A DNA stretch of 64,000 nucleotides from an uncultured Candidatus Rokubacteria bacterium (GTDB lineage: Bacteria; Methylomirabilota; Methylomirabilia; Rokubacteriales; DASRDR01). The notes under the pieces are model-generated. The model did no database searches and was not told the origin of the DNA. It worked only from the letters and a program-made list of their open reading frames with translations. Below are positions 24,637 through 48,402 of the stretch, piece by piece. Position 1 is the first letter of the stretch. Each line of letters opens with the position of its first letter. The stretch is from NCBI GenBank assembly GCA_963826115.1, contig CAWGVS010000002.1, positions 1-64,000 on the forward strand, written 5' to 3'. The position numbers and the translations under genes were made by a program.

Positions 24637-24658
24637 CGCGACGCGAAGGTCCACACCC

Positions 24659-26781: not shown

Positions 26782-26843
26782 CCGGGACGCAGGAACACGA
26801 GGATGACCCCCGCCTGCCGCGCAGGCACAAGGAGGCGCAACGG

Positions 26844-27197: not shown

Positions 27198-27201
27198 CCC
27201 C

Positions 27202-28371: not shown

Positions 28372-28725
28372 GTGACGACGGGGCGTGCGTCCGTCTCCCG
28401 CTGCGTCGTGTGTCAGCCTCCGGGGCGGCCGGCGGCCCGGCGCTGTGCGGACTGCCGGGAGCCGGTGCACCAGCGTTGCCAGGCCGCGCACGCCTGCGCC
28501 CCGAAGCGGGCACGCATGGCGGCCCTGGAGGCGGCGGCCCGCGCACGGCTCCTGACCTATCGCGTGATCCTCACCCTCCACGTGGACCAGACCCTCGACT
28601 CGCCGGCCTCATGGGACTGGCCGAGCCGTCTCGGGCTGCGTCCGCCTGAGCGCGTGGTCGCCCACGTGGAGCGGCTCCGCGAGGAGACCGGTGAGACTGG
28701 CGCACCCGTGAGGCCGCCATCGTGA
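28372..28725 (+). CDS. Hypothetical protein with Cys/His zinc-finger-like N-terminus
   Basis: CVVC...CADC...HQRC...HAC; GTGA overlaps at both ends. Confidence 0.5.
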   Translation: MTTGRASVSRCVVCQPPGRPAARRCADCREPVHQRCQAAHACAPKRARMAALEAAARARLLTYRVILTLHVDQTLDSPASWDWPSRLGLRPPERVVAHVERLREETGETGAPVRPPS

Positions 28726-28988
28726 CCCGCCTCAGCGGCGACGAGCTGCGCGACGGCTACGTCTGGAACGGCTTCGACTACGCGCTCCAGGTCTGGGTCG
28801 TCGATGGGGTCGCGCAGTCCTGCGGGCACCCGGTGGCGATGCGCCGCGCGGGCCCCTGCTGTCCGGCGTTCCGCCTGGCCGGCCGACGCATCGAGACGAT
28901 TCCCGGTGCGCAGCGCCGCCCTCCCACGGCGGACGGCGGCGCGGGATCGAGCCGAACGGATCACCCCGGGCCTCGCACCGAGGCCTGA
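28722..28988 (+). CDS. Small hypothetical protein
   Basis: NGFDYALQVWV.DG...CGHP...CC; coupled start. Confidence 0.55.
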   Translation: MTRLSGDELRDGYVWNGFDYALQVWVVDGVAQSCGHPVAMRRAGPCCPAFRLAGRRIETIPGAQRRPPTADGGAGSSRTDHPGPRTEA

Positions 28989-29061
28989 GCCACCTCGACC
29001 CCCCCGCGTGCGTGGCGCACACCCGCACGCGTCTTCTCTTCCGCTGCCCAGGGAGAACGAC

Positions 29062-30621: not shown

Positions 30622-30657
30622 CGGGTCACGCTCACTGCACCAGGAGGAACCGCACCC

Positions 30658-31706
30658 ATGTCTGACCCCCTGGCCACCGGCATCCTCCTGAAGCTCGACG
30701 TGACGGTCTGGACCGGGACCGCCGCCCTGAGCGCGCCTGACCTCGGCCTCGATCCGGGCACCGTGGCCGCCCACTACACCCTGGGCCGGAAGCGGCTGGT
30801 GCCGAAGGCCGCCCTGGACCCGATCGCCACGATCGTCCGCCAGGCTCGCTACGCGCCTCGAGGGGCTGAGCCACGCGTTGCCCGACGGAAGCCGCTTCGT
30901 CCTCGCCGCGGCCACCCCCGAGGTCGAGGCGCAGCTCACCCGCACGCGGGCGCGGTTCGGCCAGGCCGTCGAGACGTTCCTCGCCGCGTATCCACGGTGG
31001 CGCGCCGACATGGCGCCCCAGTGGGACGGCGGCGGCCCGCGCGGCCTGGCACACCGCGGGACGCCCAGGGGACGCCACCCCCTTCGTCACGGCGTTCCTC
31101 GCCCGGGTCGCGGCCGCGTACCCCATGGCCGACGCGCTCCGGCGGCGCTTCGACTTCTTCTGGTGGACCTACTCACTCCGGGTCGCGGGCACGGAGCGGG
31201 TGGAACTCATCGGCCTCGCCGACGCCGAGCGGGCCCGCCGCACGGCGGACGCCACCTACCGCGCGGAGGTCGAGGCGCGCGTCGCGGCGGCGCTGGAGCA
31301 GAGCCTCGCGGGCTTCCGGGCCCAGCTCGCCGAGGCGTGCCAGGCCGTGCTCGCACACCTCCGGTCCGGGCGGCCCCTCCGCGAGGGCGCGGTCGCCCGC
31401 TTGCGGCGAACCATCCAGCGCTTCCGCGCCCTCAACCTCGTCGAGGACGACGCGGTCGAGTCCCAGCTCGCCACGTTCGAGCAGACGTGCCTGGACGGCC
31501 TCGATCCGGCGGCGGTGCACCACGCCCCCGACCTGCGCGCGACGCTCACGGCGGGGCTCCAGGCGGTCGTCGAGGCCGCCACGGCGGAGTGGCCGCAGAG
31601 TGCGCTGACCGGCCGCGCACTGCGTCGCTTCGATGTCGAGACCGAGGGCGAACCCGGCGTCCCGGCGACCGCCGGGGCGACCCCCGAATCTCCCGTCGCC
31701 GCGTGA
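30658..31706 (+). CDS. DUF3150-like protein (two apparent frameshifts near 30856 and 31030)
   Basis: LLKLDVTVWTG..L...DLGL...LGRKRLVP N-terminus; continues across three frames to FRALNLVED; RBS AGGAGG. Confidence 0.7.
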
Positions 31707-33683
31707 CCGGCGCACGGGTCAGCCGATGGTCCGCGATCGCCGCCTCTCACCACGAGAGCCGCACGGTGGTCAGGCCCCTCGACGAGACGCTGGCGGCCCT
31801 GCACCCGGGCCAGCGCGCTGGCCGTCACGCACCCGGCCCGGCCCCTGCTGCTCGCCTGCGGGCCCGGCAGCGGCAAGACCCGGATCCTGACCCACCGCAT
31901 CGAGTGGTTGATCGAGCACGAGCAGGTCGAGCCGGCCGCGATCCTCGCCCTCACCTTCTCCCGAGCGGCCGCGGACGAGCTGCGCGGGCGCGTCGCCCAC
32001 GCGCTGGGACCACGCGCGCGGACCCTCTGGGCGGGCACCTTCCACGGCTTCGGGGCCTGGCTCCTGCGGCGCCACGCGACGGCGGTGGGTCGGACGCCCG
32101 CCTTCACGATCCTGGATCGCGACGACACCCGCCGCCTCGTCGCCCGCCTCGCGAAGGACCTGCGCCTCGAGGGCGACCTGCCCACGCTCGTCGAGGCCCT
32201 GGAGCGGGCGAGGACCCCCGAGGTCCCTGGCACCCCAGGCCCGGCGGCCCCGGCGCGGTCCCCGATCGCGGCGCTCCGGGTCGCCTATGAGACGCGGTGC
32301 CGCCAGGCGAACGCGTTCGACTTCCTGGACCTGCTGACGGAGCCGCTCACGTTGCTCGCCCGTGAGCCGACCGTGCGGGTGGCGCTGCGGGCCCGCTTCC
32401 GGGCGGTGCTGGTCGACGAGGCGCAGGACCTGTGCGCCCTGCAGCACGCGCTCATCGAGGCGCTCGCCGCCCCGGACGGGGCGCTGACCCTCGCCGGCGA
32501 CGATGATCAGGCCATCTACGGCTGGCGGGGGGCGGACCTGACGCGCCTCCACGCCTTCGAGCGCACGTACCCCGGCGGCACGGTGCTGGCCGTCGGCCGG
32601 AACTACCGGTCGACCCCGCAGATCGTGACGACGGCCGCGCGGCTCATCGCCCACAACCGGGCCCGGCGGCCCAAGCCCCTCACCGCCGTGCGGCGCACGG
32701 GGCCCGATCCCACCGTCCTGACCTGGCCGGACGACCGGGCGGAGGCCCAGGGGCTGGCCGCCGCCTGCGCCGACTGGCTCCGCGCGAGTGCCCCGCCGAT
32801 CGCGGTCCTCGCACGGGTGACCGCCTGCCTGACGCCGATCGCCCGCGCGTGCGCCGCGGGCGGGCTCAGCGTGCGGATCCTGGCGGAGCGGCCCCTCGCC
32901 GAGCGCGCGGCCGTGCGCGACGTCCTGGCCGTGTGCCGCGTCCTCGTGAATCCGGCCGACTGGCCCGCGTGGGAGCGCGTGCTGCCTGCGCACCGCTGCG
33001 GGATCGGCGCGAAGACCGTGGCCACCCTGCGCGGTCGCGTCGCCGTGGTCGGGGTGACCGAATCGTTGGCGGAGGTCGCGCGGACCCGCCCCCGGCTGGC
33101 GGCGCTCCTCCAGCAGCTCGCGGACTGGCGGGCCGCGCGGCTCCCGGTGAGCCAGCTCCTCGAGACACTGGCGCGGGACGTCAGCGGCCAGCCGTCGAGC
33201 ACGGGCCGATCGACCACCGCGGAGGCCGAGGCACGCCGAACCGAGGACGTCGCCGCGCTGGTGGCCGTCGCGCGGCGATGGGACGCGGACGGCGGCGGCA
33301 GCCTGGGCGAGTTCCTCGACACCCTCGTGCTGAGCGACGACGACCCGGGCGCCCCCGCGGCGACCCAGGTGCTCGGTCTCACGCTCCACGCGGCGAAGGG
33401 GCTCGAGTTCGACACCGTGGTCATCGTGGGCGCCGAGGAAGGGCTCCTGCCCCACTACCGACACACCGTGCCCGAGGCGCTCGCCGAGGAGCGACGCCTC
33501 TGCTACGTGGGGATGACCCGGGCGCGGGAGCGGCTCGTGCTCTCCGTGGCCCGCATGCGACGCCTGTGGGGCGAGGTCGTCTTCCGACCGCCCTCGCGCT
33601 TCCTCCGCGAGGCGGGGCTCGACGTCCAGCCGGCCTCCCCGAGCGCCATCACCCCCACACCACAGGAGGTCAGTCCGTCATGA
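31703..33683 (+). CDS. UvrD/PcrA superfamily 1 helicase (frameshift near 31820)
   Basis: GPGSGKT, LTFS, GTFH, VDEAQD, GDDDQAIYGWRGA, NYRST, TLHAAKGLEF, EERRLCYVGMTRA. Confidence 0.92.
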
Positions 33684-34942
33684 GCCTGACCGCCGCCGAG
33701 ACCACGGCCGAGCGGCTGCCGCGGGTGAGCCCGTCCCGCCTCGAGGCCTGGGACCGGTGCCCGGCCGCGTACCGGTTTGCGTATGTCCTGGGGCTGCCGC
33801 AGCCGGTGGCCGACCAGGCGCCACGGCTCCTCGGGTCGGTGGCCCACGCGCTCGTCGAGACGTACGTCCGCGAGGCGCAGACGACGGGGACTCCACCGCC
33901 ACTCGATCGGCTCCCGGCCCTGGCGCGGGCACTCCTGAGTGGAAAGGCACTGCCGGAGGCGACGACGGCGGGGCTCGCTCGTGAGGCCACCGAGCTCGTC
34001 CGCGCGTGGCTGAGCCGTTGGGCCGTGCCCCTGGCCCACACCGTGGGCGTCGAGCACGCCCTCGCGATCGATGTCAGGGGTGCGCGCGTCGCGTGGGAGG
34101 CTCCGGACGCCTTCCTCCGCGGCCGGCTCGACCTCGTGGCCGTGGAGGGTCGGCAGGCCACCGTCTACGACTGGAAGAGCGGCTGGCTGACCGAGGACGA
34201 CGAGGGCCTGCGGCGCGCGTGGGCGCCGGGCTGCTACGCCGCCCTCCTGTGGGCGTGGGCGCCGCGGCTCGAGACGGTCGCCGTCGAGTACCACTACCTG
34301 CGCACCGGCCGCGTCGCCCGGACGACCTTCGCCCGGGCGGACGCCATCGAGACGCTCGCCTGGGCCCGGACGATCGCGGCCCGCATCGCCGAGGCCCTGG
34401 CCCGCCCGGACGATCCCGCCGCCTTCCCGCCCCGGCCCTCGACCGCCTGCGCCACGTGCCCCTGGGTGAACCGGTGTCCGGCCGGCCAGGCCGCCCTCGA
34501 GGCCATGGACGAGGCACCGATCCCCGACGACACCGAGGCTCGCCGGCTCGGGACGCTCCTCCTGGCCGGCGAGGCGCGCGTGGCGCGTCTCCGCGAGCGC
34601 CTCCGGCAGTACCTCCAGGACCGCGAGCCCCTGGCGCTCGACGGGATGGAGCTCGGCTTCTTCCCCACGAAGGGCCGGTACGACGCGGCGGCCGTCTTCC
34701 GCGCGGCCACCGAGGCCGGGGCCGATCCCTGGCCCCTCCTCGCCGCCGACGGCCGCGCCCTCGCGGCCTTCCTCAAGCGCCGGCCCGACACGGAGCGGAC
34801 CCTGAGCCCCGCATGGACCGCGACGCCGCCGTGGTTCGGTCACCGGAAGGTCGCCGCTTCGCCAGGCAATCGGCGAGCGAGGACGTCCTCGGGAAAGGGG
34901 ATGCCCGCAGAAGCACCAGATCGAGAGCAGCCCGTCCCCTGA
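33680..34942 (+). CDS. PD-(D/E)XK (RecB/AddB-like) nuclease with four Cys
   Basis: SPSRL...CP, GSVAH, GRLD, DWKSG, CATCPWVNRC; ATGA-coupled to the helicase. Confidence 0.9.
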   Translation: MSLTAAETTAERLPRVSPSRLEAWDRCPAAYRFAYVLGLPQPVADQAPRLLGSVAHALVETYVREAQTTGTPPPLDRLPALARALLSGKALPEATTAGLAREATELVRAWLSRWAVPLAHTVGVEHALAIDVRGARVAWEAPDAFLRGRLDLVAVEGRQATVYDWKSGWLTEDDEGLRRAWAPGCYAALLWAWAPRLETVAVEYHYLRTGRVARTTFARADAIETLAWARTIAARIAEALARPDDPAAFPPRPSTACATCPWVNRCPAGQAALEAMDEAPIPDDTEARRLGTLLLAGEARVARLRERLRQYLQDREPLALDGMELGFFPTKGRYDAAAVFRAATEAGADPWPLLAADGRALAAFLKRRPDTERTLSPAWTATPPWFGHRKVAASPGNRRARTSSGKGMPAEAPDREQPVP

Positions 34943-35067
34943 TCCTCCCCGGCCACGTCAAGTGCAACCCGATCGCGCCTGGTTCGGGACGCGGGGACTC
35001 CCAATCCCCCAGGGTGACGGCTTCGTGCACGAGCTTGGAGACCCCGCCGACGACGCAAGGAGAACGC

Positions 35068-35283
35068 ATGCCCACCCTCGGCATCCGACAGGAGCCCACA
35101 GCCCCGGCAACTCCCGTTGCGGAGATTCCGGACCGGCACCAGCGACCCGGAGTCATCATCACCGGGTCGTGCTCGGACTCCGCGTTCGTGGCGGCCAAGG
35201 TCCTCATCTGCGCCGACACGCTCAGCGCCGAGGAAGCGATCCGGGTCTGGCTCGAAGCACACGGCATCCGGGTGGGCGGCTGA
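35068..35283 (+). CDS. Small hypothetical protein
   Basis: RBS AAGGAG; 71 aa. Confidence 0.45.
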   Translation: MPTLGIRQEPTAPATPVAEIPDRHQRPGVIITGSCSDSAFVAAKVLICADTLSAEEAIRVWLEAHGIRVGG

Positions 35284-35448
35284 CTCCGGCTTCGCCGACC
35301 GGTCGAGGACACGCGTGAGCCAGCCGTCGACCAACTCAGTGGAGCCGCCCTCCGCCAGCACTCCGACCGCGCTCCGGGGCCATCGGGGCAACCGAAGCAG
35401 TCAATCCGATGAGCGCCAGAACCTGTCGACGGTGCCGAAAGAGGACAG

Positions 35449-35827
35449 ATGAGCACGTCGCCTTCCTCTCAGTGACGCGAGCCAACGGCTCAGAGCAAAT
35501 CCGCCTTCACCGAGTTTCCCTGGTCGCCGCGGGCGGCCGAGGAAGGCTTCCACCGATGGCGGGGCCACCGCCGGTGGCCGCGGACCGGCAAGCGGGACAC
35601 GGGGCGCGTCAGAGGGACGGCCGCGGGTCGGACAGGTCAGCATCGCGACCCTGTCACCCCGCCTCCTACCCGCTCGGGAAGCCGCGAAATACCTGGGGGT
35701 CAGCTACGACAAGCTACTCGATCTTCGCTCGGCCGGAACCGTTCGACCGCTGTCCATCCCGGGTCTGCGGAAACTCGTGTTCGACGTCCGGGAGTTGGAC
35801 GACCTGGTTGAGCGGTGGCGAGCCTGA
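35449..35827 (+). CDS. Excisionase-like HTH protein (start uncertain or frameshifted)
   Basis: Manual translation ...GRRGRPRK...PRLLPAREAAKYLGVSYDKLLDL...LVFDVRELDDLVERWRA*; immediately upstream of the integrase. Confidence 0.7.
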
Positions 35828-35922
35828 CCTGACCCGGCCTCGTCCAGCTTCCCTCAAGTGACCCGTCGTGGAAGCACCAGAGATGGCAAGGCCCGTGTGG
35901 GCATGAACACGGGGGAGGAGCG

Positions 35923-36978
35923 ATGGGATCGTTGTTCAGGCGGACGAACTCCCGGAACTGGTGGATCAAGTACTGGGCGAACGGGCGTCAGCACCGGGAG
36001 AGCACGCGGACCGAAAAGGAGAGTGAGGCACGACGGGTCCTCAAGGAGCGGGAGGGGCGCGTGGCGGCGGGACAGCCCGTGCTCAACCGCGCAGACCGCG
36101 TCCGGTACGACGAAGTCGCCCAGGATCTTCGGACGCACTACCGAACCACGGGATCGAGGAATGTCGAAGAGGCCGGGTACCGGCTCGATCATCTGGACGC
36201 TTTCTTTTCCGGGTATCGCGTCGCGCAGATCACCCCTCGGCATGTCGAGAAGTACGTGGAGAAGCGCCAGGCCGGGGGGACCTCGAACGGAACGATCAAC
36301 CGCGAGGTGGCCGTCTTGATTCGCATGCTCCGGTTGGCCTACGAATCGGGAAAGCTTCTGCGCGTCCCGGTGATCCACAAGTTGAAAGAAGGCGCGCCAC
36401 GCCGGGGATTCTTCGAGCGCGAGCAGTACGAGGCCGTGCGGCGGTACCTTTCCCCCGACCTGCAGGTCGCCGTGGCACTCGAGTACGCGTTCGGCTGGCG
36501 ATGTCAGAGCGAGGTGCTCACCCTGCAACGGCGCCAGCTCGATGTCGAGGCCGGCACCCTGCGCCTCGAACCGGGCACCACGAAGAACGACGAGGGGCGG
36601 GTCGTGTATCTCCCGGCGGACCTCAAGAGCCAGCTGGTGGAGCAACTCGAACGCGTGCGGGCACTGGAACGGAAGACCGGGAGGATCGTTCCGCATCTGT
36701 TTCCGCACCTTCGAGGACGACACCAAGGCCAGCGGATTCGGGACTTCAGACGGGCGTGGGTGACGGCCTGCCGAAGGGCAGGCGTGCCCGAGATGCTACG
36801 TCACGACTTCCGGCGCACCGCCGTTCGGAACCTGGTCAACGCCGGAGTGCCGGAGCGGGTCGCCATGACCGTGACGGGCCATCGCACTCGGAGCGTGTTC
36901 GACCGGTACCACATCGTGAGTCCGGCAGACTTGCGGGACGTTGCCCGGCGGCTCACCCCGCCCGAGGACCCACGCTGA
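35923..36978 (+). CDS. int: Tyrosine recombinase/integrase
   Basis: GWRCQSE (R), TKN (K), HDFRR, TGH, DRY catalytic set; N-terminal arm-binding WWIKYW segment. Confidence 0.95.
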   Translation: MGSLFRRTNSRNWWIKYWANGRQHRESTRTEKESEARRVLKEREGRVAAGQPVLNRADRVRYDEVAQDLRTHYRTTGSRNVEEAGYRLDHLDAFFSGYRVAQITPRHVEKYVEKRQAGGTSNGTINREVAVLIRMLRLAYESGKLLRVPVIHKLKEGAPRRGFFEREQYEAVRRYLSPDLQVAVALEYAFGWRCQSEVLTLQRRQLDVEAGTLRLEPGTTKNDEGRVVYLPADLKSQLVEQLERVRALERKTGRIVPHLFPHLRGRHQGQRIRDFRRAWVTACRRAGVPEMLRHDFRRTAVRNLVNAGVPERVAMTVTGHRTRSVFDRYHIVSPADLRDVARRLTPPEDPR

Positions 36979-37032
36979 ACCGGCTACATTTCCGGGTCCA
37001 GCCAGGGGCGGGCACTCGCACAGCCCCCTGGC
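36809..37032 (+). repeat. Direct repeat copy 1: integrase 3' end plus downstream arm/hairpin
   Basis: Aligns by eye with 47341-47559. Confidence 0.92.
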
Positions 37033-37347
37033 CAGGCGGAGGTGTGCGTACCCACGCACAGTTGCTGAGGTACAGATGCTGCGTCTGCGCTCAGCGGTCG
37101 TCGGGCGACTCACGAGCCACTTCCCTACTATCCATATTCCGCTGAGTGCGCTAGCCGGGGCCACGCGTGGGCATCTCAAGCGCACCAGCGCACACGCGGT
37201 CCCAGCCGAATAGAATGCAGCAGGCAATTCTGCAGACGGCGGCGAGCCGATTGACCACTTTCTCGCCTGGCTGAGTCCACACGCGTCCGCCTCAGTGCAG
37301 AACGTGCACTGGCTTCGTTTGACGGCTAGCAAGACCAGTGTACGCGC

Positions 37348-39643
37348 TCAGCACTTCCACCACGACGGCGCTCCGACCACCGTCGCTCGATGTTGCCGCG
37401 TTTCGACCACGAGACCTTGCGGGGCCGACAACACCCGCCGGATCGGGTCCTTCGTACGAACTCCGCCGACGCGTCGGCCGGTGGGGCCGAACCACGAGAA
37501 CGCCTTGGACTCGAGTAAGCCGAACCCAGTATCACCAACCATCAGGTCGCCTTGGCCGAACACGTCAACAAGGGCCTCCAGACGATCCTCCGATAAGACG
37601 TACAGGCGCGTGTCGGTCAGCAAGTAGAGATGCGAGTCCGTCTGAATGATGTGGCGCGGGACCGCGCCGAGGTCGTACACACGGACCGGGACGCCTCGGT
37701 CGGACACTTCAACCACCTTTCCGGAATAGCCGGCCAGAAAGACGCGGTTGTCGCTGGAACCGAAGTTCGTGGCGTAGATCCAGTCGGAGGCATGCTTCTC
37801 GGAAACGCCCATGCTAAGGGTGATTTCCAGGCCGAGCGCCCCGCCAGGCGTGCCGCCTACAGGAACCTCCATTCGTTTGCGGCTCAGAATCTTCTCGTAG
37901 GTGACCCGCTCGACCTCGTCGGCGCCGATCCCGCGGAGATCCGCCCCGGTAAGTAGCTCCATTGCGGCCGCGAGCTCCTGGAACCGCCGGGTGGCGTCCG
38001 GATCGTTGGGATTCCTGTCCGGATGCCACCGCATGGCGAGCCGCCGGTACTGGCGGGTGATGTCCGCCGGCGCCACCGGCAGTTCGAGTTCCATCAGTTG
38101 GAGGGCTGTTTCGACGTCGCGGCTAGTGCCCAAGCGCTCCACGCGAGGAGTGGCGACCTTTGTCCACCCCTCCTGCGCCGGCAGTCGGATGCCCCACAGC
38201 ACCTCCCCAGTTGCGGTGGACATGCACCAGGCCTCGTCGACGACGGTCACCAGGTACCTGGACCGATCGGCCGAGATGGCGACGGACCTGACGTGGGTCC
38301 GTAGTTCCCGCGGGTCGATCCCGAGCCGCTCGGCTTGGGCTCGGTACTCAGGAAGGTCTTCGACGCGCTCCGTCAGGATCTGCTCGATTCGGTCCGAATA
38401 GCCGTGGAGCACCCCCTCGCGGGACATGAAAAGGATCGCCGAGCCGTCTGTATTGACGTCCGCGCGGTATACGCCGTGGGCGAGACCACGCTCGGCCACG
38501 ACTGACCCCGCCCGATCGGTCACCCGAAGTACCGCCGCCGCGTCGTCGAAGCCTTCACGGCGCCCATGGGGATCGAGCCAAAACGTCGAGCCACTGGTCG
38601 GGAAGGTGTCTTTGTAAGCGGGGTCCGGGCGCTGTTCCGGTGCGAGCTTGTGCTCAGAGAGGATCCGCCACCCTTCGCCGTCGGCCGCGAAGCGCTGCGC
38701 CGCTTGCGGAGCCGACGCGCGCCTGAGACTCGCCTCGGCAACGCGCACGGTCTCCGCCCAGACCCGGTCGGCGTGGTCCTCCGTCTCCTGCTGTTGCCGC
38801 CTCTCCCAATGCGCCGGTGCCTTTGGGAGCCGGACATACGGGAGTGCGGCGAGGTCGATTTCCCGTGCGCCCAACGGCGAACGCCGTGGGCGCGACCGCA
38901 GCACCGGCGCGATGGTACGCGTGGACGGCTGCGGCGGCGGACCCGTGCTCGTCAACGCCGTGGACACACTCACTGCCGATACGTCGGTGGCGACCGTCGG
39001 GTAGAGCTGGAGGCTCGATCCCTTCTTCACTCGTCGGATCCGACCAGCTTTTTCGAGCCACGCCGCGAGCTGAGAGACGCGGCGGCCATCCGCGACACCA
39101 AGGTGGGCTTTGAGCCCGGACTGCGCGAGTCCCGGTTCCCGGCGCACCACACCCATGATGCCAACCACGAGTTCAATATCCGCTTCCGCCTGCTCAGCCG
39201 ACGGCAACCAGTCGCGGAGCTCACGCACGCCTTCCAGCGCGGCGCGAAGTTCCCGAATACCCTCGCGATCCTCCAGGACCGCCATGAGCGTCGGCGCCGT
39301 GTGCACGGCATGTGACGTCCTGATGTCGAATCTGCCGTACTCACGCTGACACTCCCGGACGAACTGCGACATGATCGCGTAGGTCTCGCGCGCGGCGGCG
39401 ATCGCCGATCGATAGTCCTGATCTGCCTTTCCCCGCTCGATCACCGCCGAGAGCTCGAAGTAGCGGTCCGATCACCCGGCCTTCGACTTGGCCGCCTCGA
39501 GTGCCGTGCGCACTCGCTGGTTCCGAGGCGGATGCGATTGATGGCTTCGCCGGCTCGTCGACCGCTGCGGTGCTAGGGTGTGCAGACGTCGGCTTCGCCG
39601 CGGAGATGTCACCGCCGAACAGTCGCTTCAAGAAGGTGACCAT
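37348..39643 (-). CDS. Large J-domain-containing protein with beta-propeller-like repeats (apparent frameshift near 39468)
   Basis: ITRQYRRLAMRWHPDRNPND...RFQELAAA J-domain; flanking strand-rich repeats; HTH-like segment; start MVTFLKRLFGG. Confidence 0.75.
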
Positions 39644-39888
39644 CGCATCGCCTCGAGGCAGGAGCGCCGAAAGAGAACAGAAGGAATCAAGCGACTTGCG
39701 AAGCGCAGAGTCGGCGAATTGGCTGCCAGTCTCCGGTGGCCTTCCGGCTCATGAACTACCCGGGCCCCCTGCCCGCCGGGTCCGATCCTTAACCCGGTCG
39801 CGACGTCGGCGATGTCCGAGGAAGTGCCAACGTGGCTCGCGCGGCATCCTCGCACGTCGCACCGAGGTGCTCCCGACCGCCGAGGCGT

Positions 39889-42800
39889 TCATCGTCGGCG
39901 CACAGCCCGTTCGAGAGCGACCGCGCGGACGAAACCGTCTTCCGTATCAGCATGAACGGGTCCGCTATCCGGCACCATGGCAGCCGCCGCCAAGTAGTCA
40001 TGGGGCCTGCACGTGAACACAACGATCTGAAAGGAGCGAGCCTTGTCTATGAGCAACGCGCGGAACCAGTCCATACGGTCGCCGTCGCTCTGGACCAGCT
40101 GATCATCCAGGACGATGGTCGTACAGAGGTACTCCCCAAGGGAGATGCGGTACAACGTCGAGAGCTGCTCTCGCGTTCCGACCGAGATCCGGTCGATCTC
40201 CCGAGCCGCCCCGGCTGCTAGTACGCCCTCTGTGGCGAGGTGGGCGGTCAGCTGCACGCCCTGGTAACGCTGTTTCGTCAACTCTTGGAAGCGACCCGCG
40301 ATGGCTGGGGCAAGGGCCTGGCCCAGATTGTTGGCTTGAGCGGCGTCGGCCTCCTTCATCTGCTCGAGCAGGAGCCGCCATGCCTCATAGTCCTCTTCGA
40401 TCTCTCGCTCCTGGCGCTCGGCGAGGTCGAATGCCTCCAAGGCGTCGCGTAGCCGCTCGCGTGCTACGGCGCCACCGACCTGCTCGAGCGCACCGTGTGC
40501 CCGTTGCATCTCACGATCGATATCATCGAGGACCCGTTCGGCGGTCGCCAGGGTATCCCGAGATGCGGACAGCTCGCCCGCGCTGATGTCCCGCGCTGGA
40601 ACCGGAAGAGCGGTGTGCCGCGCCGATGCCGTGGAGAGCATCGCCTCCGCGGCATCGAGATCGTGCGCGGCGCGCAGTTCCTGCAGATCCGCAAGGTGGC
40701 GCATCTCGGAGGCGTGTTCGGCGGTCGCCTGTGTGACAGCCTCTTGAGCAGTGTTGGTGGCCGTGCGCGCCGCATCCGCCTTGGCGCGCGCACCGGCTAC
40801 GGCTTCCTCCATCTTCCGCGTGCGTGTCTCGATCGAACGCTCCAAGGCGCCGAGCTCCGCCGCGATCCTCTCCCGATCCGAGAAGGCGGCACGGAGGGAC
40901 TCTTCGGCCGCGCTCGCCGACTCGGCGATGCCAGATGGAAACTGCCGAACGGCGGCGTCCCGCGTCTGCTTGGCGGCGTCGAGAGTCGCCCGTGCCGCCC
41001 GAACACGCTCCTCCGCGACGCTGTGCGTCGTGGCCGCCTCTCTCGCCGCGCTCCTCGACTTTTCCGCCTCCTGCGACGCTTGTTGGCGACGAGCCCCGAG
41101 GGCGGTGCCCGGATCCTTGCCCAACCGGTCGAGCTCAGCGCTCAGACTCTCGAGGGACACGTCGCCGAGGGCCGCATGGCAGGCCTCGGCACGGGAGAGA
41201 GCCGCGGTCAGCGCGTCTTTCGCGCCGGCGAGAGCCGAGATGTCCCGGCGAACGACATCCAAGGCCCGGTCCATTTCTTTGAGGCTCGCATCCAGCTCCC
41301 GCGCCTCCGCCACCCGCGTTTCGAGCACATCCAGATCAGACGCGCCGGCCGCGGCGAGGTGCGGCGCCACCTCACCCGCCCAGCGGGCTTCCAGGCGGCG
41401 GACAGTGTCCTGCGCCTCACGGCGCCCCCCTCGGACACGAACGGTGGCGAGGTCGGCTATGCCGACTTCGACATCACTGTTCGCTTCGATCTCGAACGGC
41501 TGCGCGATGACTCCCGGATCGTCGTGGGCCCCGTCCTTGCGGACGTGGAGGTCGAGGGGGGCCCGCGGAGTCACGGTCACGACGAGGCCGACATTCAACG
41601 CCCCGCGGGCACCCGCCAGGTTCGCCGCGAGGGCTCGCATCGGCGCCAGGGCTTCGGGAGCGGGGACAATGATGGCGGCACGGCGCTTCGCCGCCTCCAC
41701 GCGTTCGGCAACCGTCTTAAGCAGTTGCGCCTGAAGGCCGGCCTCCTTGTCCACGCTGGAGCGGCTGTTCACGACCTGGCCGTCGGCCGCTTGCGCTGCC
41801 AGGGCGCGTTCCAGCAGGTCATACCTTCGCAGTTGCTCACCGACCGCCCTCTCCCCTTCGTCCGCCCGGGACCACTCCTCCCGCACCTGGGCGGCCATCG
41901 CTTCCAATCTGCCGTGTTCCTCCTCGGCGCGCAGCACTTCATCGACGCACTTCTGCGCGGCGGCGACTGCATCGATCGCCTTTTGGGCCTCCATCGCCAC
42001 CTGCTCCGTTGCGGACCTGCGAAGTTCAAGGCCTTGACGCGCCACGGTGTCGGCCATGGCCGGATCCAATCCCGCTGCGCGCGCGGTCTCCTCGGCGGCC
42101 TTCAGACCATCATCCGCTGTAGCCTGGACGTCCCGAGCGATCTTCAGAGCCTGTCTAGCGTTGTCCCGCTTCCCAACAAGCAACTCGACGTTCTGACCGG
42201 CGACGACAACCTCCTCATCCATCTTCCGAATCTGGCCGACCGCCTCCCGCGCGACACGGACGCACTCTGCACCCGCCGCAAGCTCCTCGGTCTGCCTGGT
42301 GAGCAGCTCCACCGCGGCGAGCCCTTCCGTGGCGACCCTTAGGTCCTCCTGATACTGGACGCGCTTCGACACCAGGTCCCGAAGCTGACTCTCCACGCCC
42401 TCGGAATCGTGGACCACCTTCTGCCAACGCTCCTTCTCCTCTCGCGCCGCGTTCAGGCGGTCGGCGGCGGCCTTGAAGACACTCCCCCGCGCCGTCTTCT
42501 TGGCACCCTTGTCCGTGTAGGCTGCGTCTCGTCTGGACTGCACTTCCCGAAGCAAGCCGACGAACAGCGGATCCTGCGCAAGCGCCTGCAACGCCGCGGC
42601 GATCCGTTCCTTGCCCGTTGGCGCGGTGTCGCGTTCCAGGCTTCCCTCAAGGATCGCGCTGACGTCGGCCTGTGTGGACAGCAACGCGGTGGCCAGAAAG
42701 CTGGTCGGAAGACCCTTGGCGGCCCCCGAGCCGCCCGGCTCGGGGATTCCCCAGCGCAGGATCTCCCGCAGTCTGGCATCGACCCTCCGGGCACGTTCCA

Positions 42801-43122
42801 CTTCATCGAACTGCTGACCATCCCGGGACTCCTGCAGCACGGACGAACCGCCCTTCCCGAACTGCTTTCGCACGCGCCAGAAGCGCTGCGCATCCGTTTG
42901 GAACGTCAGCTCGACCATGGGGTCCTGGCCACCGGTCCAGGGCACGAACGATTCGCAATGGGTTGACGTATGGGGTAGAAGGAGCACCAACCGGATCGCG
43001 TCCGCCAGCGTCGACTTGCCGAGATCGTTCGGACCATAGAGCACGTTCAGTCCTGGGCCGAAGACAACCTCCCCCGCCCCAATGCCGGCAACATTCTCGA
43101 CGCGGAGTCGATGAATCCTCAT
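39889..43122 (-). CDS. Rad50/SbcC/YhaN-like ABC-ATPase with long coiled coil
   Basis: Walker A GPNDLGKS, long Ala/Glu/Arg coiled coil, signature ISVGTREQ, Walker B IVLDD..VQSD, FTC. Confidence 0.9.
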   Translation of the reverse strand: MRIHRLRVENVAGIGAGEVVFGPGLNVLYGPNDLGKSTLADAIRLVLLLPHTSTHCESFVPWTGGQDPMVELTFQTDAQRFWRVRKQFGKGGSSVLQESRDGQQFDEVERARRVDARLREILRWGIPEPGGSGAAKGLPTSFLATALLSTQADVSAILEGSLERDTAPTGKERIAAALQALAQDPLFVGLLREVQSRRDAAYTDKGAKKTARGSVFKAAADRLNAAREEKERWQKVVHDSEGVESQLRDLVSKRVQYQEDLRVATEGLAAVELLTRQTEELAAGAECVRVAREAVGQIRKMDEEVVVAGQNVELLVGKRDNARQALKIARDVQATADDGLKAAEETARAAGLDPAMADTVARQGLELRRSATEQVAMEAQKAIDAVAAAQKCVDEVLRAEEEHGRLEAMAAQVREEWSRADEGERAVGEQLRRYDLLERALAAQAADGQVVNSRSSVDKEAGLQAQLLKTVAERVEAAKRRAAIIVPAPEALAPMRALAANLAGARGALNVGLVVTVTPRAPLDLHVRKDGAHDDPGVIAQPFEIEANSDVEVGIADLATVRVRGGRREAQDTVRRLEARWAGEVAPHLAAAGASDLDVLETRVAEARELDASLKEMDRALDVVRRDISALAGAKDALTAALSRAEACHAALGDVSLESLSAELDRLGKDPGTALGARRQQASQEAEKSRSAAREAATTHSVAEERVRAARATLDAAKQTRDAAVRQFPSGIAESASAAEESLRAAFSDRERIAAELGALERSIETRTRKMEEAVAGARAKADAARTATNTAQEAVTQATAEHASEMRHLADLQELRAAHDLDAAEAMLSTASARHTALPVPARDISAGELSASRDTLATAERVLDDIDREMQRAHGALEQVGGAVARERLRDALEAFDLAERQEREIEEDYEAWRLLLEQMKEADAAQANNLGQALAPAIAGRFQELTKQRYQGVQLTAHLATEGVLAAGAAREIDRISVGTREQLSTLYRISLGEYLCTTIVLDDQLVQSDGDRMDWFRALLIDKARSFQIVVFTCRPHDYLAAAAMVPDSGPVHADTEDGFVRAVALERAVRRR

Positions 43123-44282
43123 GGCGCGCGCTCGATCAGGGCATCGTGACTCTGGAGAAGCTTGTACAGGTGGGCCAACGCGCGAGTCGCTTTCGTCTTC
43201 TCGGCTTCGTCGACTGAATCGCCAACGATTCGGTCGAGGCGTGCCACCGTGTCTTTGAGGACAGCAGGAAGGTCGTCTGGAAAGGCACCCGAAGACCCCG
43301 CCTGCAAGCGCAGGTTCGTGCGGTCCACGAGCAGCACGCCCGCGCGTCCGTGAGTCGCGTCGGTTCCCTGGAGATCCTGCACAATCCGCTCGAGTTCGCT
43401 CTCCTCGGACAGAGAGACGATCATGTCGAGGTGGAGCCTCACCACGTGCCGCTCGAGGTGTTGGGTGGTCAGCACTCTGCGCAACTCATTCATGTCACGG
43501 CAATGAACGTCCATCCAACGCCAAAACGCTACGGGCTCCGCATCGACCCGAGGACGGCGACCGTGCCGGAACAAGGCGACGAGCGCCACGTTGCCGGCCG
43601 TCGCCTCGTCGAAGGACGTGGCTTCTGGAGCGCCGGGATACACGGTCGGGACCGGCAGCGCCTCTGTGACGTCGCGGAACGAGTGGGTATCGCCGATGGC
43701 CAAATAGTCGAGTCCGCGCTGAACGCCGGCGTCCCGACGGATTGGGAAATTCGTCTGGTGTCCCTCGATGTCGAACGTTTGGCCGTGAACACAGCCGATC
43801 CGGAGCCGCATATCACCGGGCTGGCGCGCAGGCAGCGCCATCGCAAGGTCGTTCTCGCCCGCCTTCGAATGACACGGCCGCGCGTAAAGGACTGCATCGG
43901 GCGTGATCTCGTACTCAAAGTCGTCTCGATCGACCACATGCACCCACTGCGGAAGACGCGACCGAAAGGGATGCCCTGGAGCCCACACCGATTCCGGAGT
44001 CAGGGGGTCATGGTTGCCGGGGACAAGGAACATGGGAGCATGCGGAGGGGGCTGATCCCTCAACACCTTGACGAGCCCCTCCCAAAAGTCCGCACTCGGT
44101 GCCGGATCGTCAAACAGATCGCCCGCGCACAGAACAGCGTTGACGCTGTTCCGTCGCGCCACATCGAGGATCCTCGAGATCACCTCCATCCGCGCCCGCG
44201 ACAGCTTCTTCTGCGCCTCCTCGGGAAATGACGGGAACCGGCGCCCGAGGTGCCAGTCCGCGGTGTGCAGCAGCCTCAGCAC
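43119..44282 (-). CDS. Mre11/SbcD/YhaO-like metallophosphoesterase nuclease
   Basis: HTADWHLG, AGDLFD, PGNHD, HG, LAIGDTH, YPGAPE; GTG start overlaps the helicase stop. Confidence 0.92.
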   Translation of the reverse strand: MLRLLHTADWHLGRRFPSFPEEAQKKLSRARMEVISRILDVARRNSVNAVLCAGDLFDDPAPSADFWEGLVKVLRDQPPPHAPMFLVPGNHDPLTPESVWAPGHPFRSRLPQWVHVVDRDDFEYEITPDAVLYARPCHSKAGENDLAMALPARQPGDMRLRIGCVHGQTFDIEGHQTNFPIRRDAGVQRGLDYLAIGDTHSFRDVTEALPVPTVYPGAPEATSFDEATAGNVALVALFRHGRRPRVDAEPVAFWRWMDVHCRDMNELRRVLTTQHLERHVVRLHLDMIVSLSEESELERIVQDLQGTDATHGRAGVLLVDRTNLRLQAGSSGAFPDDLPAVLKDTVARLDRIVGDSVDEAEKTKATRALAHLYKLLQSHDALIERAP

Positions 44283-47221
44283 GACGTCTTCGGGTCCGGG
44301 GGGTTTATCCGGAATGCCGCTCGGAACAGCCGCGTCACTTTGGGCGCCCGATATCGAAGCTCGTGGTATTGGTCCCGCCATTTTCGGTAGACCTCATCTT
44401 GCCTGGAGTCCAGAGCGTTGATCCGGCGCTCCAGCGCCTCGTCCCTCGTTGCGAGCCGCTCGATCTCCTCCTCGACCCTCTCGCGAGCGCTCGACCCGAC
44501 GATCTGATCGCGGCGATCTCGCGCTGAGCGTAACTGTTCGGCGATCCTGGCCCGTTCGCGGCGGCTGACGAGTACCTTGTCGTCGACGAACCGCTCGAGC
44601 TGCCCGATAGCCTGGTCGAAATGCTCCTGCTCCCTCTTTTCGACTTGCCGCTGGTCGACGAATACCGCCTCGTCTACGGCGTCATCGAGCCAGGGGGGAT
44701 CGACGATGGCCTCGATCGCGGGTCCGTCCACCGCCCGCAGGCGACAGATCTCAGCGGCCAGCGTCGGCTCGATGGGAACGCCCTCCACGACGGCCGCGGC
44801 GATCACTCGGTGCACCGGCTCGAAGCCGGCGTAGTCCACGAGAGCCACTCCGAGCACACCGGTCTTTCCCGCCAGAGCCCACAGATCGGCCGACGCGTCG
44901 TGCGGCAGCAAGAATCCGACCGAGCCCCCGGCCCACGTTCGGGCGTCTGCGATCGCCGCGTGGACCAATGGATGCGACAGGTTCAGCGCCTCGGCGTCCC
45001 GAAGACCTCGCGCATCTCCGGTCGCAAACAGATGGCCACTCCCGTGTCTGGGAGTGAGAGGTCCCGGCGTCGCAACATCAAAGATGACCCGACCACGCTC
45101 GTCGGAATGCCGGTACTCCACCCCACGCGCGTCGAGGTAGCCATCCACCAGTTCGGCGAGGTCTCGGTCGAGCTGCGCGAGCGCACCGGGCAATTCCGCG
45201 CGAAGCCGCCGAAAGACCTTTCGCACGTCGTCGTCGAACCGGGATTCGATGACCTGCGAGGTGCGCTCGTACTCCTTCTCGTACGCGTCCCGCCGATCCG
45301 AGATCCTGTCGCGGAGCGCAGCGATCTCTCGGGTCATCTCGTCAATGGTGCGCGACCGGCTGTAGATGCTCCGGAGGTCGCTCTCGAGCTCGACGGATAG
45401 AGCCGACACGACGATCTCCGGGGCGTCAGTGCGGGGCTCGTGCAGTACGTGGTCCGAGGCGTCCAGGACCTTGCCGAACAGGTCGAGCTTCTGGCTCAGG
45501 ATCTCGAAGGTCAGTCGATGGGCCTCATTGTCGCGCGCGATGAAGTTGACCACCGTGACGTCATGCTGCTGGCTGTAACGATGGCAGCGGCCAATGCGCT
45601 GCTCGATGCGCTGGGGGTTCCATGGCAGGTCGTAGTTGATGACCGTCTCGCAGAACTGGAGGTTCAGCCCCTTCGCGCCGGCCTCGGTGCACACCAGAAC
45701 CTTCGACCGAGTTCTGAACTCATGGACAAGAGCCAGCCTTACCGCTACCGTGCGACTGGGTCTTGACCCGGGCGCAAGGCGGACTCCTTCCTCCTGCTGC
45801 CAGCGAGTGTAGGCCTCGGTGGCGCGCTCGTGGTCGTTGGCGCCGCGGAACAACGTGATCTCGTCGTCCTGCAGACCCATGTCAAGTAGGAGAATTCGGA
45901 TGTACTCCTGCGTCCGTATGGATTCGGTGAACACAACGGCCTTCCCGCTACCGCGCCCCTCTCGTCCCAGCTCGAGCACAAGGCCGATCGCCTCCTTGAA
46001 CGAGCGCGCCTTCGCATCGTTTGGAAGAGCGCGAGCACGAGCGACGAAGGCTTCGACGCGGGCCAGCTCCGCAGCAAGGGCCAGCCGGTCCGTTGGAGGC
46101 CGCGTCTCCTCGGGTTGCGCCTCGTCATCGTCCTCCTCTTCCAGATCGAGCTGGTTCTCGATCGCCATGTCATCGACGGGCTGACCGGATTCGAGTCCCC
46201 GAAGACGCCGCGCGACGTTCTCGAGGCTCGCGGCCAGCGCGGAAATCGATGACGCCATGCGCCGATGGAACCCGATCAGCAGCAGCCGGCGCTGCCGACC
46301 AGAGAACGCGTAGATCGAAGGCTCAAGGAGATACTGCGTCACGTCATCGTAGAGCGACCGCTCGTCGTCACTCATCGAGTACTCGTAGAGCCGGCATCGG
46401 CGCTGCGTGAAGGGCCGATCCAGGAACTCCTGGGCCTGCCGGCGAAGCGTCCGCTGCAGCACAGTCGCGAGGCGTCGCTGGAGCTCGTGCTCCTGGCCGG
46501 GCACCAGCGTCCGGTCATCCTCGGCACAAAAGACCTGGCGGAAAGTAGTGATGTCGCCGAGCAGCGTGCCCGTGGGTTCCACGTATTGGACCAGCCCCCA
46601 CAGCTCCGCGAGCGAGTTTTGTATCGGCGTCGCGGTGAGCAGAAGGACGGGGGAGGACCGAAGAAACCCGCGAACCCGATGCGCCATCATCGCCTCTTCC
46701 GAGGCGTCGTCGTAGATGCCGTCGCGTCCGTAGCGCTTGTGCAGGCCCGCGAATATCTCGTGCGCCTCGTCGATGACCACCAGGTCAAAAGGAGGCACGG
46801 CGCCCAGGGGCGTCGCCCCACGCTCGCTGCCCGCGAACTCACGGCCCACCAAGTACACCCCAGGCGCGAGGAACGTTTGGTCCTCTCGCGCCTGGACGCC
46901 GAAGAGGTTGAACAGCTCGTTCTGCCACTGGCCGATGAGCGACTTGGGGACGATCAGCAGGATGCGCTGAGCGCCTTCCGCACGTGTTTGTGCGATCACC
47001 AACCCGGCCTCGATGGTCTTGCCGAGACCGACCTCGTCCGCGAGGATGCAGCCGCCTTCCCTTAGCCGTCGCAGCGCAAAGATGACCGCGTCGATCTGGT
47101 GGGGGTTCGGGTCGATCCGTGCTTGGCGTTGGGACGCCGCATAGCGCTCCCGGTCATCTGGCCGGCGGATCCGCACAAGCTCTTCGGCGAGAAGGCGACG
47201 ATTGAATGGATGGAGGTTCAT
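44276..47221 (-). CDS. SNF2-family (RapA/HepA-like) helicase
   Basis: PHQ, LADEVGLGKT, DEAH, LTATP, EAGAKGLNLQ, YDLPWNPQRIEQRIGRCHR; C-terminal coiled coil. Confidence 0.95.
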   Translation of the reverse strand: MNLHPFNRRLLAEELVRIRRPDDRERYAASQRQARIDPNPHQIDAVIFALRRLREGGCILADEVGLGKTIEAGLVIAQTRAEGAQRILLIVPKSLIGQWQNELFNLFGVQAREDQTFLAPGVYLVGREFAGSERGATPLGAVPPFDLVVIDEAHEIFAGLHKRYGRDGIYDDASEEAMMAHRVRGFLRSSPVLLLTATPIQNSLAELWGLVQYVEPTGTLLGDITTFRQVFCAEDDRTLVPGQEHELQRRLATVLQRTLRRQAQEFLDRPFTQRRCRLYEYSMSDDERSLYDDVTQYLLEPSIYAFSGRQRRLLLIGFHRRMASSISALAASLENVARRLRGLESGQPVDDMAIENQLDLEEEDDDEAQPEETRPPTDRLALAAELARVEAFVARARALPNDAKARSFKEAIGLVLELGREGRGSGKAVVFTESIRTQEYIRILLLDMGLQDDEITLFRGANDHERATEAYTRWQQEEGVRLAPGSRPSRTVAVRLALVHEFRTRSKVLVCTEAGAKGLNLQFCETVINYDLPWNPQRIEQRIGRCHRYSQQHDVTVVNFIARDNEAHRLTFEILSQKLDLFGKVLDASDHVLHEPRTDAPEIVVSALSVELESDLRSIYSRSRTIDEMTREIAALRDRISDRRDAYEKEYERTSQVIESRFDDDVRKVFRRLRAELPGALAQLDRDLAELVDGYLDARGVEYRHSDERGRVIFDVATPGPLTPRHGSGHLFATGDARGLRDAEALNLSHPLVHAAIADARTWAGGSVGFLLPHDASADLWALAGKTGVLGVALVDYAGFEPVHRVIAAAVVEGVPIEPTLAAEICRLRAVDGPAIEAIVDPPWLDDAVDEAVFVDQRQVEKREQEHFDQAIGQLERFVDDKVLVSRRERARIAEQLRSARDRRDQIVGSSARERVEEEIERLATRDEALERRINALDSRQDEVYRKWRDQYHELRYRAPKVTRLFRAAFRINPPDPKTSC

Positions 47222-47340
47222 CAGACGGCCCTTGGACGTGCAGAGGCGAAACGCGACGGCCGTCGATCGCTGCCCTCAGTAGCGGCGTTTGCCCTCTTCT
47301 GGGCCAGCATCATGGGATCATGGGCCGGTGGTGTCGTTCA

Positions 47341-47559
47341 TCCGGCGTACTCCCGTTCGGAACCTGGTCAACGCCGGAGTGCCGGAGCGGGTCGCCTGAC
47401 GGGCCACCGCACTCGAAGCGTGTTCGACAGGTACCACATCCGTGAGTCCGGCAGACTTGCGGGAGGTTGCCAGGCGGCTCACCTCGTCCGAGGAACCACG
47501 CTAAACCGGGTACATTTCCGGGTACAGCCAGGGGGCTGGCACTCGCCCAGCCCCCTGGC
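47341..47559 (+). repeat. Direct repeat copy 2: pseudogenised integrase 3' end with intact arm repeats and hairpin
   Basis: 7-bp deletion and +1 insertion versus int; CCGGGTACA at 47506 and 47518; perfect 12-bp stem at 47528-47558. Confidence 0.92.
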
Positions 47560-47575
47560 AACTACCCGTCAGATA

Positions 47576-47653
47576 TGGCGGGGTCGACGGGACTTGAACC
47601 CGCGGCCTCTGGCTTGACAGGCCAGTGTGCTAACCAGGCTGCACCACGACCCC
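47576..47653 (-). tRNA. tRNA-Asp (GTC)
   Basis: GGGGTCG/CGACCCC acceptor stem, D arm, CTGGC-CTGTCAA-GCCAG anticodon arm, TTCAAGT loop, G discriminator, encoded CCA. Confidence 0.97.
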
Positions 47654-47672
47654 GATGCGGAAGAACGCAGTC

Positions 47673-47701: not shown

Positions 47702-47820
47702 CTCGCGACGTCGGTCACGCGCGACATCGGTAGCAACCGGACCAAACTATGCCCACACCTATGCTTGAGAGACCACTGGCCTTTGGGGCCAGTGGCTCAG
47801 GGGAGTGCGTTGGGTGGGAT

Positions 47821-48060
47821 TCAGGCACTCCGCGCTCGTCGGACGTGTTCGGCGAGGAGGTCGTTGATGAGGGACTGATAGCCAAGCCCACGCCGCTTGG
47901 CCTCGCGCCGCACGGCATCGAGAACCTGGGGATCGATCCGAATCGCAATGAGTCGGCGGGCCGCCGCCCCCAGGGGGGGCCGCCCGACGCGCCGCATCGC
48001 CCGGAGCTGCGCGGGGGACGCCTCCGGGATATCGGAGAAGTCAATCCCGGGACGCCGCAT
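47821..48060 (-). CDS. brnA: BrnA antitoxin family protein
   Basis: IDFSDIPE, IAIRIDPQVL, GYQSLINDLL. Confidence 0.9.
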   Translation of the reverse strand: MRRPGIDFSDIPEASPAQLRAMRRVGRPPLGAAARRLIAIRIDPQVLDAVRREAKRRGLGYQSLINDLLAEHVRRARSA

Positions 48061-48328
48061 AGCCCGCCCGCTCCTTGCGGCTCGCCCGGCGCGCGCTGAT
48101 GATGCGGATGCTCTCGCCATCGCCTTCCCTCCTCACGGTATACGCCACGATGAGCACACGGCCGGTCGCCGCTCGGCCCAGTCGGAGGAATCGCGCCTCC
48201 TCCGCGGAGTGACCCAGATCCGGGCCATCGAGGGCGTCCGGATCACCGAACACGGTCGCCGCCTCCTCGAACGAGACCCTGTGCTTGGCGCGGTTGACCG
48301 CGGCCTTCCGCGCGTCCCATTCGAACAT
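48041..48328 (-). CDS. brnT: BrnT family toxin
   Basis: FEWD..K...N..KH.VSFEEA..VF, IRIISARRA..KER. Confidence 0.93.
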   Translation of the reverse strand: MFEWDARKAAVNRAKHRVSFEEAATVFGDPDALDGPDLGHSAEEARFLRLGRAATGRVLIVAYTVRREGDGESIRIISARRASRKERAGYAASRD

Positions 48329-48372: not shown

Positions 48373-48402
48373 CTATGCCAGAAACTATGCCCGCGACCGC
48401 CC
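48373..48402. repeat. 30-bp direct repeat (arm-type site), copy of 60007-60036
   Basis: CTATGCCAGAAACTATGCCCGCGACCGCCC versus CTATGCCCGAAACTATGCCCGCGACCGCCC, 1 mismatch. Confidence 0.85.

Follow-up and report, generated by a model that had tools for sequence, protein, structure and literature searches.

The 64-kb window analysed here (64,000 nucleotides, C2:1-64000) belongs to G000, a 6.24-Mb metagenome-assembled genome (MAG) of an uncultured Candidatus Rokubacteria bacterium with 5.3% contamination. In this window a 10-kb cassette adjoins the tRNA-Asp(GTC) gene and is flanked by a direct repeat that carries the 3' end of a tyrosine integrase gene. The locus is probably a tandem array of two elements at tRNA-Asp, with element E1 (the cassette) beside the tRNA gene and element E2 further out, and the two copies of the repeat would be the homologous right-hand ends of these neighbours rather than a duplication that arose inside one element. 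The locus offers a worked example, from the little-studied Candidatus Rokubacteria, of how tRNA-linked islands may accrete, lose an integrase and fuse. It is also a caution that where a duplicated integrase tail brackets a cassette, the cause can be nothing more than two islands lying side by side.

Anatomy of the direct repeat

A sequence-only reading of this DNA had described the repeat and its parts, and alignment of the two copies bears this description out. The repeat is ~225 bp long (36809-37033 versus 47341-47559; 89% identity, E=1.3e-78), and these two copies are the only ones in the genome. The features that carry the argument are the following.

36809-37033, plus strand: copy 1, integrase tail and P arm assigned to E2, with degenerate arm repeats and a weakened hairpin
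47341-47559, plus strand: copy 2, orphan tail assigned to E1's own integrase, with an intact P arm; integrase body deleted, frame broken
35923-36978, plus strand: int351, intact tyrosine integrase assigned to E2, 351 amino acids (Pfam PF00589, E=1.6e-12)
37039-37063, plus strand: P' box, assigned as the core-proximal piece of the E1 distal arm (alignment and motif scan)
47569-47623, no strand: att core, made up of the end of the spacer and the tRNA-Asp 3' half to the anticodon stem (repeat at G000:C4:7630-7684)
47576-47653, minus strand: tRNA-Asp(GTC), not found complete elsewhere in the genome (ARAGORN and a search of the genome itself)

Copy 1 is the in-frame 3' end of int351, and its first arm repeat begins 2 nt past the int351 stop codon. 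Both of its arm repeats contain a mismatch (CCGGCTACA at 36980-36988 and CCGGGTCCA at 36992-37000), and its hairpin (37002-37031; -20.5 kcal/mol, z=-0.8) is no better than that of shuffled sequence. Copy 2 starts at the codon equivalent to int351 residue 296 and retains about the last 56 codons of an integrase, in a frame that is damaged by a 7-bp deletion and a single added base and is interrupted by a TGA codon. Alignments with the DNA upstream of copy 2 revealed no further integrase remnants, being no better than shuffles (p=0.99). The non-coding part of copy 2 contains exact arm repeats (CCGGGTACA at 47506-47514 and 47518-47526, a 12 bp period), which are the only two exact matches in the window against 0.21 expected. 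These are followed by a hairpin with a 13-bp stem (47529-47559; -32.4 kcal/mol, z=-5.4), and the tRNA-Asp gene starts 16 nt past copy 2 on the opposite strand. The CCGGGTACA pairs are putative arm-type integrase binding sites, and each right-hand end would then run from an integrase 3' tail through two arm-type repeats to a hairpin.

Attachment site and the junction behind copy 1

The P' box (25 bases) starts five bases past the copy 1 hairpin. The stretch 37039-37065 matches G000:C4:7616-7590 at 89% identity, and 13 nt separate the C4 stretch from a tRNA-Asp 3' half (55 nt, C4:7630-7684), the one isolated half of this kind in G000. Read in the orientation of the window, the C4 locus comprises a native GC-rich hairpin at C4:7685-7730, a spacer, the tRNA 3' half, 13 nt and the box GAGGTGTGCGTTCCCACCCACACTTGC, with CCGGGTACAcgaCCGGGTACA ~100 nt further in. 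The C4 locus is the far junction of an island, where displaced chromosomal DNA is followed by the core and then by the P' arm. In G019, a genome of a different genus in which an orphan tail adjoins tRNA-Asp, an island of ~16.5 kb lies between the tRNA and a 3'-half repeat and has the same layout at both ends, including a native GC-rich hairpin next to the 3' half at its far junction.

The stretch 37039-37063 is homologous to P' arms. None of 2000 shuffles reached the score of the local alignment between the box and the C4 arm (p<0.0005), and alignment to the G019 distal arm gave p=0.003 in the same register. A search of 61 genomes for the box motif with at most one mismatch returned five matches, while reversed-pattern controls returned none. 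One of the five is the box in the window, and in the remaining four (G019:C18, G001:C7, G004:C15 and G000:C4) the distance to a tRNA-Asp 3' half is always 13 nt. The pair CCGGGTACA-N3-CCGGGTACA with at most one mismatch is found twice in 6.24 Mb, in copy 2 and at C4:7506-7526, the latter beside the tRNA-Asp 3' half and ~100 nt inside the far junction. The pair is thus found once on each side of the core in G000, and likewise in the G019 island, an arrangement that corresponds to a predicted attP with arm-type sites on both arms in a lambda-type layout. For one integrase lineage, the whole of attP can in this way be defined in silico, from the arm repeats and the hairpin to the core and the P' box.

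At copy 1, ~75 bp are absent between 37033 and 37039, corresponding to the spacer, the tRNA-Asp 3' half (core) and the first P' bases. Since the P' box directly follows copy 1, copy 1 appears to be a junction between two elements from which the core has been deleted. The E2|E1 junction would be in attP order, P arm and then P' arm, as a tandem array predicts, and both elements would lie 3' of the one tRNA-Asp gene.

E2 and the origin of int351

The DNA to the left of the junction contains the body of a second element.

21512-35284, plus strand: E2 body, referred to as M (ParM, SSB, RadC, AAA+, UvrD, PD-(D/E)XK; Pfam and identity to G008)

Its genes encode an actin-like ParM, SSB, RadC, an AAA+ ATPase, a UvrD helicase and a PD-(D/E)XK nuclease and are plasmid-like; no conjugation genes were identified. 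Two copies of M are present in G008: window 21512-34850 is 98% identical to G008:C39 and window 22563-35284 is 96% identical to G008:C40, whereas a syntenic chromosomal stretch of the two genomes is only 87% identical. In both G008 copies the homology ends at the equivalent of window ~35284 and a recombination module follows directly. The C39 module consists of an HTH_17 protein and a 439-aa tyrosine integrase, followed by chromosome, and the C40 module is a 576-aa serine recombinase abutting tRNA-Glu. By its position, int351 evidently occupies the recombinase slot of M, so E2 should end just past the integrase, exactly where the repeat ends. An open reading frame (ORF) at 35409-35861 was rejected as a gene, as its translation is of low complexity and matches no family above threshold in Pfam, PADLOC or NCBIfam.

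int351 passed the tyrosine recombinase profile test, scoring 48 bits against PF00589 (cut-off 27.1). The motifs WRCQSE, TKNDEG, HDFRRT, GH and DRYHIV, and with them the catalytic set R-K-H-R-H/W-Y, were read by eye from the translation rather than from a structural alignment. Window 10800-18520 is also 98-99% identical to a G008 contig (C99) and therefore seems to travel with M, such that the block common to E2 and G008 may begin further left, at ~10800. Within 10800-16520, an insertion sequence (IS) with an rve_3 transposase (10893-11915) truncates an ABC ATPase gene and is followed by fragments of a molybdopterin oxidoreductase and of pfkB.

Spread of E1

E1 extends from about 37034 to 47575, where it adjoins the tRNA, and all genes between the copies are on the minus strand. 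An 8.7-kb block of E1, including copy 2 with its truncated integrase, is 97.3% identical in G004, where it also lies beside tRNA-Asp, while the backbones of G000 and G004 are 86% identical over a syntenic 8.7 kb. In G004, copy 2 shares both its left boundary and its 7-bp deletion with that of G000, which indicates that the orphan state predates the transfer. Taken together, the block identity, the backbone identity and the common deletion show horizontal spread of E1 between species, at a time when it had already lost its integrase. Helper-dependent mobilisation thereby becomes testable on an integrase-less SNF2/SbcD/SbcC island that has moved between species. G008 contains cassette fragments only.

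G004 was rejected as a comparator lacking the integrase for the left junction because its breakpoints (window 37236 and 38973) abut what appears to be the same IS end. This ~45-nt sequence (...CCAAACCC(C)TCCCAACTGGCCCCATAGGA...) abuts both cassette breakpoints (L037 ~7100-7262 and L048 ~1380-1460) and is probably an IS end that splits the J-domain gene between two contigs.

Reciprocal decay of the two copies

The two copies were aligned with three relatives, namely the G004 copy of copy 2, the G019 orphan tail and the orphan tail of a metagenome contig, L058. Changes were polarised on the G019 and L058 tails as outgroups and scored only in columns where both agree. Across the 172 columns of the coding part, copy 1 has one derived change and the copy 2 lineage has 13 events, made up of 10 substitutions and the 7-bp deletion (all common to G004) and two events found only in G000. 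The 56 columns of the non-coding part show the opposite, with five derived changes in copy 1 and none in copy 2; G004 by itself has one. The reciprocal decay is real (Fisher test, p=5.2e-4), and the reciprocal conservation claimed by the sequence-only reading is confirmed. At the rate of the pseudogene part, all 56 sites would stay unchanged with a probability of 0.012. Taken by themselves, the arm repeats cover too little sequence (21 nt) for their conservation to reach significance.

The same reading had taken the pattern to imply selection for continued mobility. The pattern does not establish this; the conserved hairpin beside the tRNA may simply serve the tRNA. Integration displaces the tRNA's own downstream hairpin to the far junction, and the P-arm hairpin probably stands in for it; conservation beside the tRNA is then explained without mobility. 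Paired changes in the hairpin between G000 and G019 (GGGGG/CCCCC against GGAGG/CCTCC) were observed. Relaxed constraint at copy 1, for its part, would follow from the loss of the core.

Alternative explanations

In the account given by the sequence-only reading, the 10-kb cargo was taken up by a single element, at a point between integrase gene and att arm, with duplication of the tail, after which the functions were partitioned between the copies. Such a capture is distinctly unlikely. It is consistent with the clean edges of the repeat, with the lack of any integrase remnant before copy 2 and of any tRNA remnant behind copy 1 (where local alignments do no better than shuffles, p=0.53) and with the significant reciprocal decay. 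It also draws on the quartet sites, whose 3:1:1 split weakly pairs copy 1 with copy 2 as sisters. However, capture does not predict a P' box directly behind copy 1, int351 belongs to the left-hand element, the cassette and copy 2 are present in G004, whose best int351 match is 67%, and a Campbell-type insertion through the tail would put the full integrase beside the tRNA, the reverse of what is observed. With the box after copy 1 and int351 in the slot of the left element, the claim of captured cargo was not upheld. The sequence-only reading had named as grounds for its own rejection a copy 2 closer to a different integrase lineage, as the remnant of an independent tandem island. An independent tandem island is, in substance, what the locus appears to contain; the tails themselves do not clearly differ in lineage, since the quartet split weakly groups their integrases as close kin and cannot assign them to different lineages.

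Two further explanations concern the left join of E1. The E1 block (cassette, orphan tail and tRNA) could have come from another species as linear DNA, by homologous exchange in the conserved tRNA on the right and an illegitimate join on the left, just past the E2 hairpin, with E2 until that time directly at the tRNA. The block common to G004 at 97% ends exactly at the tRNA 5' end (47654), the left junction has no core and backbone identity is only 86%, all of which suit this reading; it is nevertheless unlikely, as the illegitimate join must hit the core edge and keep the P' box in register, and elements on the 5' side of the tRNA explain the end of identity equally well. That the join after copy 1 is a chimera of the assembly is very improbable. 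The contamination of the MAG and the failure of any listed public contig to bridge 37033 count in its favour, but a mis-join induced by the repeat would cross over within it and leave the cassette out rather than join the repeat end to a P' box, and the order cassette, copy 2, tRNA is seen independently in G004.

Several observations weigh against a tandem array. The quartet split and the missing tRNA remnant are two of these. The expected internal core is absent, requiring either a later deletion or an aberrant join. Past the box of ~27 nt, the P' side of E1 lacks homology to the canonical P' arm, and no arm repeats can be recognised there; a degenerate candidate pair at 37155-37175 was rejected, with matches at just 11 of the 18 specified positions. 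A different contig, C4, carries the far att site, and its linkage to C2 and its orientation relative to C2 could not be shown (both contig starts are unique in the genome, and the synteny with G008:C99 ends at ~10800 at an IS). The left end of E2 was not seen, there being no tRNA-Asp 3' fragment in the window, and the IS at both G004 breakpoints hide what lay to the left of E1. Lastly, the copy 1 junction is known from one assembly. Public reads were available as short Logan contigs, the best run containing 0.34 of the sampled words. Pattern scans found two loci among the genome contigs (G019 and G004) and 13 among the metagenome contigs, one of them related (L058).

Proposed history and mobility

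Under the tandem-array reading, E1 would have integrated at tRNA-Asp as a cassette with its own integrase and then lost the integrase body, and this loss would be old. E2 and E1 would have become tandem; the order of their arrival is not readable, as both orders give the same map. The internal core would have been lost later, or the join was aberrant from the start, and the arm and hairpin of copy 1 would then have drifted. As the internal core is gone, neither element should be able to excise alone at the E2|E1 junction.

It is possible that int351 is still active at the two outer sites, one at copy 2 and the tRNA and the other on C4, and that the fused array moves as one unit. More specifically, core loss may have welded the two islands into a single mobile unit that depends on int351 and the two outer att sites, with the cassette locked in, although this is doubtful. 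If it were so, the reciprocal conservation would reflect selection on the parts still used, namely the intact integrase at copy 1 and the perfect arm sites at copy 2 and C4, and the 97% identity of E1 against the 86% of the backbone would show that helper-dependent islands still travel. The sequence-only reading had also suggested that recombination between the copies could drop the cassette, which is reasonable for 225 bp at 89% identity in direct orientation. Among the public short contigs, one X1 contig joins 36977 to 47505; its shorter side is just 22 letters, and it may originate from a related strain.

Cargo of E1

E1 encodes four proteins between the two copies.

37348-39444, minus strand: J (DnaJ) domain protein, 698 amino acids (Pfam DnaJ, E=1.3e-12)
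39889-43122, minus strand: Rad50/SbcC-like ATPase, 1077 amino acids (Pfam AAA_23, NCBIfam Rad50 N-terminus, PADLOC LmuB N-terminus)
43119-44381, minus strand: SbcD/Mre11-like phosphoesterase, 420 amino acids (Pfam Metallophos, E=7.7e-12)
44276-47221, minus strand: SNF2 helicase, DrmD-like, 981 amino acids (Pfam SNF2-rel_dom, Helicase_C)

The SNF2 helicase matches PADLOC DrmD (E=1.3e-129) and scores 434 bits against NCBIfam DISARM_DrmD_b, below the cut-off of 950. The cargo was rejected as a DISARM system because of this score and because the other three cargo proteins have no Drm match in PADLOC. The SbcD-like protein scores 61.7 bits against NCBIfam sbcd, below the cut-off of 77.65. The SNF2, SbcD-like and SbcC-like genes (39889-47221) form a candidate helicase-nuclease module that is not a complete known defence system in PADLOC. 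The order and orientation of this trio are kept in a genome of another family (G179:C103:6-7982; L078), at amino-acid identities of 49%, 52% and 40%, respectively, and the J-domain protein is absent there. The only homologue found for the J-domain protein is a distant one in G113 (29%), unlinked to other cargo genes.

Other islands around tRNA-Asp

The tRNA-Asp gene is a hotspot on both of its sides (window 47612-47654, 48373-48393 and 60006-60175; L006 in G004:C30, L007/L083 in G008:C78, and L082). Integrases 67-68% identical to int351 read toward the tRNA 5' end and have arm repeats of their own (CGGGCATAGtttCGGGCATAG), and the elements on this side are bounded by a repeat of the tRNA 5' half. 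The far junction of such an element lies in the window at 60006-60175, without a matching integrase in the window, and is made up of arm repeats (60006-60026), a hairpin and the 43-nt 5' half (60133-60175; 100% identical). A truncated 5'-side arm is present at 48373-48393. Between this arm and the tRNA 5' end, in the region 47715-48328, lie a BrnT-family toxin gene (48041-48328; Pfam E=4.9e-25) and a small downstream ORF; copies that are 78-93% identical occur in several relatives. The cores of the 3'-side and 5'-side elements overlap by 12 nt in the anticodon stem-loop, and the sister integrases therefore seem to share one crossover, with their arms in exchanged positions.

Orphan C-terminal integrase pieces are very common. 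About 60 of the listed rows (hand count) start at residue 219 or later, some of them being parts of frame-shifted full genes; examples are G019:C18:100270-100531, L058 and G000:C1:103278-103553. The int351-lineage P arms found proximal to the tRNA number four (G000, G004, G019 and L058), and all four are on orphan tails. No full-length integrase of this lineage was found directly at tRNA-Asp in the pattern scans or the 61 genomes. L058, a contig of 1135 bp, contains (at 484-1135) a second integrase 3' end ~300 bp upstream of its orphan tail. The two are identical for 43 nt and diverge after ...GACGTTCGCCGGG, the second having a different C-terminus. This contig may come from a tandem array in which the internal deletion is larger.

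Comparison with known systems

In a lambda-type attP, arm-type integrase sites flank the core. The attP predicted here, known from sequence alone, resembles this type in that the integrase gene adjoins the core, the core spans the anticodon stem to the tRNA 3' end, and paired direct repeats lie on both arms. It is unlike lambda-type attP in that the first arm repeat begins so close behind the integrase stop codon (2 nt) and in that a GC-rich hairpin contributed by the element follows the rebuilt tRNA. tRNA integration at an anticodon-loop sublocation was reportedly described by Williams in 2002. Myxophage Mx8, as is said to have been found by Magrini et al. in 1999, has its attP inside the int coding sequence and targets tRNA-Asp. 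The Rokubacteria locus shares with Mx8 the tRNA-Asp target and integrase 3' pieces that are detached from their gene. Unlike in Mx8, there is no tRNA-like core inside int351, and the orphan tail borders the tRNA with its own 3' end rather than at a crossover point within the gene. An Mx8-like core inside int, by which integration would split off the tails, was accordingly rejected: no tRNA-Asp-like stretch is found in 35923-36978, and it is the 3' end of the orphan tail that meets the tRNA.

A closer parallel comes from ICESt1/ICESt3 in Streptococcus thermophilus, for which tandem accretion of integrative elements, and their decay into cis-mobilizable elements (CIMEs), has been described (PMC5704250). 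Composite islands at Asn tRNA genes, with integrases that are related but distinct, are described in PMC4891358. Like a composite island, the locus has two side-by-side elements with their own recombination-module ends; the internal attI lacks its core, so that flanking P and P' pieces alone remain. The proximal outer att site at the tRNA is intact, and C4 carries the one further tRNA-Asp 3' half, which has perfect arm repeats. As defined in PMC5704250, a CIME has lost its integration genes and kept both attL and attR. E1 has lost its integration gene and its far site is coreless. In this internal att site without a crossover core the locus differs from ICESt1/ICESt3, and E1 thus lies outside the CIME definition; it differs also in its host, a Candidatus Rokubacteria MAG and not a Firmicute, and in the lack of identified conjugation genes. 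As in ICESt1/ICESt3 accretion, two elements whose integrases are related and share their site specificity are adjacent at one tRNA gene, one of them has decayed and has no integrase, the junction is in attP order and the composite may move as one unit. The locus therefore matches a known kind of structure, tandem accretion with decay into CIME-like remnants, and bacterial genomic islands are known to build up and merge by tandem accretion.

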